Source: a virus. From it: a stretch of DNA of 10,323 bases. The position numbers and the translations under genes are program-made. The stretch is taken from the UHGV virus genome UHGV-1840329; one strand, 5' to 3'. Below the pieces are notes generated by a model, which made no database searches, had not been told where the DNA came from, and saw only the letters and a program-made list of their open reading frames with translations. Shown piece by piece: positions 3,875 to 4,000 of this stretch. Every line of letters starts with the position of its first letter. Within the stretch, counting starts at the first letter, position 1.

Positions 3875-3974
3875 TTTTTCCGCCCCTTTTTGTTATTGAT
3901 ATTGGCTATTTTGCACAATTGGAAAATTTGATCAACCAGATTTGGTTTTTTATTACCTTTGAGGTACGAATAGA

Positions 3975-4000
3975 TATGAAAAGACCGCCGGATGGCGGTC
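3975..4000 (-). terminator. Intrinsic terminator, tR1-like, downstream of cro-like gene
   Basis: Perfect 7-bp stem GACCGCC/GGCGGTC with a 4-nt loop at 3983-4000, followed on the minus strand by UUUUC. It lies between the cro-like stop (4023) and the next gene start (3874). Confidence 0.5.

Follow-up and report, generated by a model that had tools for sequence, protein, structure and literature searches.

A terminator-type hairpin, a repressor-type operator and a candidate promoter between the cro-like and replication genes of a Uetakevirus prophage

The junction downstream of the cro-like gene

The DNA analyzed here is the 10,323-nucleotide viral sequence UHGV-1840329 (this whole stretch is referred to as the window), and our attention was focused on the junction between its cro-like gene and the replication genes, all of which lie on the minus strand. 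A DNA similarity search identified the window as a Uetakevirus prophage of the phiV10/TL-2011b/ZX5 type from E. coli, related to epsilon15, with 98% identity to phages TL-2011b, ZX5 and HEMP4 over 3600-5300 and to phiV10 over 3930-5300; its immunity part was found in 541 of 5,426 complete E. coli genomes. At the junction, the cro-like gene is followed by a GC-rich hairpin, by a palindrome resembling phage repressor operators (named here O_C), and by two promoter-like hexamers (named here Prep) located between O_C and the Zn-ribbon gene that opens the replication unit. Prep had been missed in a preliminary description of this DNA. Coordinates are collected in Table 1.

Conservation was evaluated in 235 loci encoding the cro-like protein, which were retrieved from phage records, viral contigs and a single genome for each species, with added scans of genome contigs and searches seeded with Klebsiella and epsilon15 proteins, and which yielded 166 distinct downstream sequences. 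Hosts of these related loci include E. coli, Salmonella, Klebsiella, Enterobacter, Citrobacter and Kluyvera, and further Buttiauxella, Pseudocitrobacter, Scandinavium and 'Ca. Erwinia dacicola'. Six phages (phiV10, Tyrion, BUCT554, epsilon15, SPN1S and Kp4865-1) were moreover site-mapped for comparison. Overall, neither the hairpin nor O_C can reasonably be put down to chance, and the two are conserved across the relatives.

The hairpin, which was listed by the terminator scan, has six GC pairs in its 8-bp stem and a 4-nt loop, and its minimum free energy is -15.0 kcal/mol, as compared to -4.5 +/- 2.0 kcal/mol in shuffled sequences (z -5.2, with 0 of 200 shuffles as good). It begins 21 nt past the TGA (4025..4023) of the cro-like gene, on the coding strand, and in the phiV10 record (DQ126339.2) it already figures as a 'putative rho-independent terminator'. 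These observations bear out the preliminary description in placing a hairpin directly after the cro-like gene; its extent, given there as 3975-4000, needs correction, as that range covers the stem together with part of the tail, while the stem itself occupies 3982-4001. The sequence following the stem, UUUCAUAUCU (3981..3972), contains five U residues in its first 8 nt and is broken after three of them (four, if the last U of the stem is counted), continuing as CAUAUCU. In a d'Aubenton-Carafa-type score, the hairpin reached +6.6, as compared to +23.3 for the repressor-gene terminator (5013-5032). From the interrupted U-tract and this score, partial termination is to be expected, and the hairpin is thus a plausible but probably leaky intrinsic terminator.

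All 235 loci have a GC hairpin past the stop codon of the cro-like gene, and it takes two forms. Class A, with 124 loci and the window among them, has the 8-bp stem, a tetraloop and an invariant tail UUUCAUAUCUAUUC, seen in relatives from E. coli, Enterobacter, Erwinia and Pseudocitrobacter. Class B comprises 107 loci, from epsilon15 and other Salmonella phages and from Klebsiella phages (e.g., loci L005, L006, L007, L016 and about 100 others), and presents a 6-7-bp stem, a C-rich loop of approximately 7 nt and a C/U-rich tail (UCCUUCCUGCAU or UCCUGCCUCUCC) with no U run, the hairpin being located 20-45 nt after the cro-like stop; with scores of -36 to -39, these hairpins are rated as non-terminators. 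In both classes the stem changes far less than the loop, the minimum changes per column being 0.38 in the stem and 1.5 in the loop for class A, and 0.08 and 1.29, respectively, for class B, and the substitutions found in stems keep pairing, by changing A-U to G.U or C-G to U.G, or are compensatory, as in Scandinavium, where GCCGCC/GGCGGC became GCCACC/GGUGGC. Within the tetraloop class, to which the formal pair count was limited, 94% of cells are paired, two pairs show compensatory changes, and none of 500 shuffles reached the covariation score; the class with 7-nt loops, whose 5' arms were wrongly placed by MAFFT in a joint alignment, was counted by script. This substitution pattern indicates that the hairpin is under selection everywhere in the family, the full terminator signature being confined, by the same sequence comparison, to approximately half of it, window included. 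Conservation in related prophages, which the preliminary description had regarded as decisive for its terminator, holds therefore for the stem, found in 235 of 235 loci, but not for the U-tract, which the epsilon15/Salmonella and Klebsiella branches lack.

Two observations concern the surroundings of the hairpin. The 21-nt spacer between the cro-like stop and the hairpin diverges among the relatives, yet it stays C-rich and G-poor and is in this respect rut-like. Moreover, the 10-mer CATATCTATT, which lies in the terminator tail at 3969-3978 on the minus strand, recurs at 5076-5085 on the plus strand, where it abuts the -35 hexamer of pL (CATATCTA-TTGACA); both copies are kept in class A relatives, and a copy with one mismatch lies over the cro start codon (4251-4260). 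These repeats may represent a site for a shared factor or a common origin of the cassettes described below.

Downstream of the hairpin, O_C agrees with the palindrome TTACC-N5-GGTAA at nine of the ten specified positions. With at most one mismatch, this motif occurs at seven sites of the window, all of them intergenic, against 0.19 +/- 0.42 expected (0 of 200 shuffles), and eight Rep-type sites are obtained once an operator with two mismatches, between the repressor (Rep) and cro-like genes, is counted. The operator-like 9/10 palindrome proposed in the preliminary description is in this way upheld as a conserved site of the repressor type. Indeed, O_C equals or exceeds in quality two of the three sites of OR, the operator region between the repressor and cro-like genes. 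The epsilon15 GenBank record marks 'repressor' protein_bind sites (ATTACC-N5-GGTAAT), with half-sites identical to those of the window motif, at OL, the operator pair of pL, and before the RuvC gene of that phage; the position of O_C is unannotated in both the epsilon15 and phiV10 records. Across the family, every one of the 235 loci carries the GGTAA half of O_C, which precedes the -35 hexamer by 16-18 nt (17 nt in 226). The information profile is high over ACC...GGTAA(TAA), including a well conserved ACC in the left half, and its center is uninformative; high half-sites with a flat center are expected of a dimer-type operator. The left half is the weaker one, reading GTACC in the window and ACACC, ATACC or AGTCC elsewhere. 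At +61 to +63 after the cro stop, phiV10, Tyrion and Kp4865-1 carry the site with at most one mismatch, and BUCT554, epsilon15 and SPN1S have a weaker site in the same place. Altogether, we infer from these sequence data that O_C is a genuine repressor-type operator and a putative binding site of Rep.

Past O_C, Prep reads TTGATC-N16-CAAAAT. Of its two hexamers, TTGATC is kept in 224 of the 235 loci and CAAAAT in 222, separated from TTGATC by 15-18 nt (by 16 or 17 nt in 219 loci), and the Zn-ribbon start codon follows the -10 hexamer at about 30 nt across the related loci. In a sequence-weighted information profile the peaks correspond to TTGATC with a T-run and to positions A2, A4 and T6 of the -10 hexamer, while the rest of the spacer and the leader vary freely. 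Prep matches the sigma-70 consensus at 8 of 12 positions, with A2 and T6 of the -10 present, and a Shine-Dalgarno sequence precedes the Zn-ribbon TTG in the predicted leader of 27 nt. A simple sigma-70 position weight matrix ranked pL 1st among the 20,576 positions of the window, the pR candidate 3rd, Prep 19th and the promoter preceding the DUF1064 gene 23rd; in the ZX5 paper, four promoters are predicted (PMC9782041). No significant RNA fold was detected in the stretch from the terminator to the Zn-ribbon gene (z -1.1). Given its conserved hexamers and spacing, Prep is probably a sigma-70-type promoter for the replication genes. The preliminary description had concluded that these genes would need readthrough or antitermination to be expressed, a requirement that the conserved hexamers between operator and Zn-ribbon gene (222-224 of 235 loci) argue against.

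Prep also coincides with a mosaic joint. Homology to most E. coli and phage relatives ends at 3929/3930, directly after the -35 hexamer, and of 544 matching E. coli records 113 span the whole query, most sharing only the part from 3930 upward. Three immunity-side and six replication-side sequence types occur in at least 12 combinations, with both hexamers kept at the right distance. The point of recombination is placed between the two hexamers of Prep.

Further sequence features were observed around the -35 hexamer. It contains a Dam-type GATC (3930-3933), and its last two bases, TC, are non-consensus and kept in 224 of 235 relatives; the phage encodes an MT-A70 adenine methylase (8216-8878), and the promoter of the replication genes may be methylation-sensitive. 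The -35 is abutted by TAAAAAA and CCAAATCTGG, the latter (3936-3945) following the consensus CCRWWTNYGG in all relatives, with information peaks CC..T..GG, and having its center approximately 41-42 bp before the predicted start, where activators typically bind. This stretch is possibly an UP-like element or a factor site. A repeated factor site was rejected for CCRWWTNYGG, as no second meaningful copy exists in the window, and a DnaA-box or integration host factor (IHF) reading of the AT-rich stretch was likewise dismissed, since it was not conserved across the relatives when inspected by eye. An antisense, pRE-like promoter on the plus strand was rejected by eye as well, since its hexamers would be 11-14 nt apart both in the window and in Tyrion, an unsuitable spacing; the plus-strand promoter-like matches at 3999-4026 and 2017-2044 come from a scan that found 7 sites, against 12.7 by chance.

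Early gene map, repressor and repeated cassettes

Assignments by open reading frame (ORF), Pfam and PHROG show a lambda-like early region in the window (Table 1). The TTG start of the Zn-ribbon gene is aligned with the ATG of its homologue gp42 in phiV10, and among phage records no copy of the window's replication module was found outside Uetakeviruses.

Table 1. Positions of junction elements, operators, cassettes and genes in the window.
Feature	Position	Strand	Description
Spacer from cro-like stop to hairpin	4002..4022	(-)	C-rich, G-poor: 9 C and 1 G in 21 nt
Hairpin	4001..3982	(-)	AGACCGCC (4001..3994), loop AUCC, GGCGGUCU (3989..3982); 8-bp stem
Tail UUUCAUAUCUAUUC	3968..3981	(-)	interrupted U-tract; includes the 10-mer CATATCTATT
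O_C, putative Rep-type operator	3953-3967	palindromic	plus strand TTACCTTTGAGGTAC; minus strand GTACCTCAAAGGTAA
AT-rich TAAAAAA + CCAAATCTGG	3936..3952	(-)	abuts the -35 hexamer
Prep -35, TTGATC	3935..3930	(-)	17 bp past O_C; contains GATC
Prep -10, CAAAAT	3913..3908	(-)	16-nt spacer; predicted start near 3901
Prep cassette	3908-4001	(-)	hairpin, 14 nt, operator, 17 nt, TTGATC, 16 nt, CAAAAT; TAGCC in place of TTACC
pL cassette	5013..5126	(+)	hairpin, 17 nt, operator, 19 nt, TTGACA, 17 nt, AATTAT overlapping the core operator
Pre-DUF1064 cassette	1989..2096	(-)	weak hairpin + U7, 15 nt, operator, 19 nt, TTGATT, 17 nt, TTTAAT overlapping the core operator
pR candidate	TTGTTA (4307..4302), 17 nt, TATTAT (4284..4279)	(-)	promoter scan and position weight matrix
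OR, three sites between repressor and cro-like genes	4290-4304, 4321-4335, 4338-4352		1, 2 and 0 mismatches, respectively
OL (pL) operator pair	5050-5064, 5112-5126		
Operator pair before DUF1064	1989-2003, 2051-2065		both perfect
Repressor (Rep)	4408-4992	(+)	194 aa, without S24 peptidase domain; ORF/Pfam/PHROG
cro-like gene	4253..4023	(-)	divergent from repressor; 76-aa helix-turn-helix protein; first gene downstream of the OR operators
Zn-ribbon gene	3874..3662	(-)	TTG start; ORF; PHROG 1081; first gene of the replication unit
DnaT-domain initiator (O-like)	3699..2851	(-)	Pfam DnaT
lambda-P homologue	2879..2103	(-)	Pfam Phage_lambda_P
DUF1064 gene (resolvase-like)	1985..1641	(-)	ORF/Pfam/PHROG
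Exonuclease	5597-6496	(+)	ORF/Pfam/PHROG
RecT	6506-7528	(+)	ORF/Pfam/PHROG
AlpA	7578-7826	(+)	ORF/Pfam/PHROG
MT-A70 adenine methylase	8216-8878		
Integrase	10323..9073	(-)	ORF/Pfam/PHROG

The layout found at the junction is common to three sites of the window, where a hairpin is followed, after 14-17 nt, by an operator, then by 17-19 nt, a -35 hexamer, 16-17 nt and a -10 hexamer. At pL and before the DUF1064 gene, a second, core operator overlaps the -10, and the distance within each operator pair is 62 bp, both in the window and in all six mapped phages; the core operator before DUF1064 covers the Shine-Dalgarno sequence and lies 3 nt before the ATG at 1985. The hairpin there is weak (GCGC/GCGC, then U7), phiV10 annotates a terminator at this place, and the epsilon15 record annotates one of the two operators. 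At Prep, most relatives keep a TTACC half-site in the pL register, from the last T of the -10, and BUCT554 has a near-complete core operator, TTACCGTAATAGTAA, with one mismatch, located 60 bp from O_C, as compared to 62 bp at the other two cassettes. Because of this half-site in the relatives and of the BUCT554 operator, the 3908-4001 junction looks like a weakened copy of an operator-promoter-operator unit. The OL pair, the three OR sites and the pair before DUF1064 recur in all six mapped phages, and the 17- and 31-bp spacing within OR is common to the window and epsilon15. A GGTAAC half-site was also noticed 11 nt past the core operator of pL (5127-5141); epsilon15 has a full third OL operator approximately 76 bp from its neighbour, of which the window half-site may be a remnant.

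We then considered the proteins that could bind these sites. The repressor matches PDB entry 5D50, the SPC32H repressor, over residues 1-190 (E 3.5e-42), and by this profile match it is a clear homologue of SPC32H Rep (PDB 5D50/5D4Z). It carries an HTH_3 domain at residues 106-147 and a second, N-terminal segment resembling a helix-turn-helix (HTH), with a weak YdaS_toxin match at 21-61; no LexA-type peptidase domain was found in the Pfam search. A repressor with two HTH-like segments and no such peptidase fits an antirepressor-driven induction as in SPC32H. In PMC9638917 and PMC9986798, which cite Kim et al. 2016, SPC32H Rep is described as a protein that binds DNA in tetrameric form, its two DNA-binding pairs being assembled across dimers, and that an antirepressor inactivates; according to PMC9986798, its repression mechanism 'has not been extensively characterized'. 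In ZX5 and phiV10 the repressors are identical in sequence, and overexpression of the ZX5 repressor blocks lytic growth (PMC9782041).

The 76-aa protein of the cro-like gene belongs to PHROG 35, 'transcriptional repressor' (E 5.6e-13), had no Pfam match, and in a PDB profile search gave only an E of 0.21 to an immunity repressor HTH; it is a Cro by position and fold class only. Across the genus, its homologues are 57-84% identical to the window's protein, with an invariant HTH segment (AGTTSHYIQ.HLT), a far better conservation than that of the repressor, for which the identity between the phiV10 type and epsilon15 is 42% (PMC9782041).

A proposed function for the junction and its alternatives

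The tR1 likeness suggested in the preliminary description concerns both a position and a mechanism. Lambda tR1 is a Rho-dependent terminator, preceded by nutR (boxA/boxB) and overridden by N. The position, after the cro-like gene, agrees; the mechanism does not, as the window has a hairpin of the intrinsic type without a nut site, and the resemblance to tR1 is thus positional only. A boxA search of the window gave two matches, against 2.3 expected, both on the plus strand and inside genes, and no boxA or nut-like element exists between the cro stop and the hairpin, which are separated by 21 nt only. As the preliminary description had also stated, no N-like arginine-rich protein could be recognised: the first two ORFs from pL, assigned to PHROG 898 and 856 (unknown function), have at most four Arg per 18-aa window, and no small ORF checked exceeds five, none of them N-terminal, in a sequence that covers part of the phage. 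An Rfam scan of the whole window (E<=1) returned only a sub-threshold Phe-leader match over the repressor-gene terminator.

Starting from the sequence features described above, and from their statistical excess, conservation and geometry, we propose with moderate confidence that 3908-4001 is a compound regulatory junction, made of a leaky terminator, a Rep operator and Prep, and one of three early cassettes. In this proposal, the hairpin and its interrupted U-tract would end a short pR transcript after the cro-like gene and insulate the downstream genes, O_C would be bound by a tetrameric repressor of the SPC32H Rep type, and the Zn-ribbon, initiator and P-like genes would have a transcript of their own, begun by Prep near 3901. 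In the lysogen, Rep at O_C, centered approximately 59 bp upstream of the predicted start, would help to keep Prep off. One partner of O_C in the tetramer could be the degenerate core site that many relatives have at the start point and that the window has lost; the alternative is OR, 337-385 bp away. The phage would thereby have three terminator-insulated early units under Rep control, starting at pL, at Prep and at the promoter before DUF1064. With a promoter of their own, the replication genes would need neither N-type antitermination nor readthrough, which fits the fact that no boxA, arginine-rich protein or Rfam match was found. The junction would work like an insulator followed by a restart, rather than like a barrier with an antiterminator.

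Several points weigh against this proposal. The activity and start point of Prep, as well as the efficiency of termination, are predictions, and with 8 of 12 consensus positions Prep was missed by a standard scan, which needs 9 of 12. The invariance of TTGATC could reflect its GATC or a recombination linker, and not a -35 function. In the window, moreover, the core half-site is degenerate (TAGCC), so that Rep would be held only at about -59, from where a repressor alone seldom blocks RNA polymerase. Finally, the hairpins of the epsilon15/Salmonella and Klebsiella branches have no U-tract, which suggests that the hairpin may be conserved for a function other than termination. Should that be the case, the hairpin could serve as a 3'-end stabiliser of the cro mRNA, as part of a Rho-dependent terminator or pause, or as a site for a protein or RNase, in agreement with a stem kept in 235 of 235 loci, about 107 of them without any U run, and with the C-rich, G-poor flank found throughout the family. 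We consider such a role improbable, as in the window and the other loci among the 124 of class A the hairpin is followed by U-rich sequence and resembles an intrinsic terminator. Rather unlikely is also a barrier of the tR1 kind, in which all transcription of the replication genes would come from pR past the terminator, by readthrough or through an unrecognised antitermination factor or RNA, with the operator as an accessory. It would agree with the position after the cro-like gene, with a moderate, leaky terminator (+6.6 vs +23.3) that makes readthrough plausible, with U-less epsilon15 and Klebsiella hairpins that would let pR transcripts pass, and with a Prep that is only an 8/12 match. Nevertheless, it leaves unexplained both the invariance of TTGATC and CAAAAT at 16-17 nt across six unrelated downstream modules and the presence of the same layout around the obvious pL promoter, and the boxA/nut element, arginine-rich small protein or Rfam match that could assist it were searched for in the window with no success.

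Two further explanations assign O_C a different task, and both are compatible with the compound junction proposed above. O_C may be a purely auxiliary, long-range operator, in which case a Rep tetramer would bridge it to OR over 337-385 bp, loop out cro and tighten pR repression or tune autoregulation, and the hexamers would be no promoter. Such looping is suggested by a tetramer with two separate DNA-binding pairs, as described in PMC9638917 and PMC9986798, by an odd number of OR sites (three) facing a lone O_C, by a helical phase that places O_C 32.1 and 35.05 turns from two of the OR sites, and by an O_C-OR distance that is fixed across the family. However, helical phase matters little above 300 bp, a fixed distance is the trivial result of a conserved gene length, and neither the conserved -35, -10 and spacing nor the near-complete core operator of BUCT554, 60 bp away, would be accounted for, which makes a purely auxiliary operator unlikely in our view. 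In the remaining explanation, Rep bound past the terminator would act as a roadblock that stops leaked polymerases in the lysogen, reinforcing the silencing of the replication genes. The gp71 'stoperators' of mycobacteriophage L5 are a precedent, and an operator located 14-17 nt after the hairpin in all three cassettes, together with a terminator predicted to be leaky, would suit this task. Yet, with pR already under three operators in the lysogen little transcription would arrive, the palindromic site has no orientation bias, and the fixed 17 nt to the -35 (226 of 235 loci) points to a promoter-linked role, so that a roadblock appears very improbable.

Taken together with the other cassettes, the compound junction leads to a broader picture, which is possible and offered tentatively. 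In it, Uetakeviruses would run a lambda-like early order without N-type antitermination, through at least three terminator-insulated cassettes, in each of which a promoter is bracketed by Rep operators approximately 60 bp apart and would be clamped into a small loop by one Rep tetramer. The Prep cassette would be a weakened one, whose lone strong operator may bridge to OR and loop out cro; module exchange between -35 and -10 would generate a hybrid promoter in every mosaic phage, and the near-invariant GATC may couple the replication genes to methylation.

Relation to known systems

As regards novelty, the putative terminator was already present in the phiV10 annotation, and O_C and Prep are unannotated elements of known kinds. 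As read from its sequence, the junction is composed of a plausible intrinsic terminator and a putative Rep-family operator, and probably of a sigma-70 promoter, the whole being an ordinary but neatly organised regulatory junction. Its immunity region is common in E. coli and is carried also by O157 reporter and typing phages, and its repressor belongs to a family with an unusual, structurally studied antirepressor switch, for which genome silencing appears little characterised in the literature. A map of eight operators in fixed geometries and an internal promoter would explain how the early genes can keep the order seen in lambda and yet dispense with N.

When compared to lambda, the window presents the same order of repressor, divergent cro-like gene and replication genes, including a lambda-P homologue, and, as in the lambda arrangement cro-nutR-tR1-cII, a stop signal lies after the first rightward early gene and ahead of the replication genes. 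It differs from lambda in having an intrinsic-type hairpin, in that no boxA was found, and in the operator and conserved promoter located just downstream. O_C resembles the Rep operators of the epsilon15/SPC32H type, with the same half-sites, a 15-17 bp palindrome and a homologous repressor; unlike the annotated epsilon15 Rep sites, it stands alone, has a weaker left half and is centered approximately 59 bp before the predicted start of a candidate internal promoter.

A tetrameric repressor with paired operators 62 bp apart also recalls looping repressors, such as those acting at lambda OL-OR, 186 FL/FR and lac O2/O3, and a lone O_C approximately 340-385 bp from OR can be compared to auxiliary looping operators, though for the Rep family looping is what we would infer. 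The operators of pLS20 Rco, 75 bp apart, are comparable to the 62-bp Rep pairs, and the tetramerisation domain of Rco is said in PMC9986798 to resemble that of SPC32H Rep. Another parallel, at the level of the whole early region, is found in systems with scattered sites.

In phage P1, with its C1 operators, and in L5, with its stoperators, one repressor controls several early units through scattered intergenic sites. As in those phages, the window has one repressor over several separate early units, instead of two master promoters combined with antitermination. It differs from L5, however, in the nature of the sites, which in the window are approximately eight, palindromic, promoter-linked and of fixed geometry, while those of L5 are asymmetric and orientation-dependent, and block elongation.

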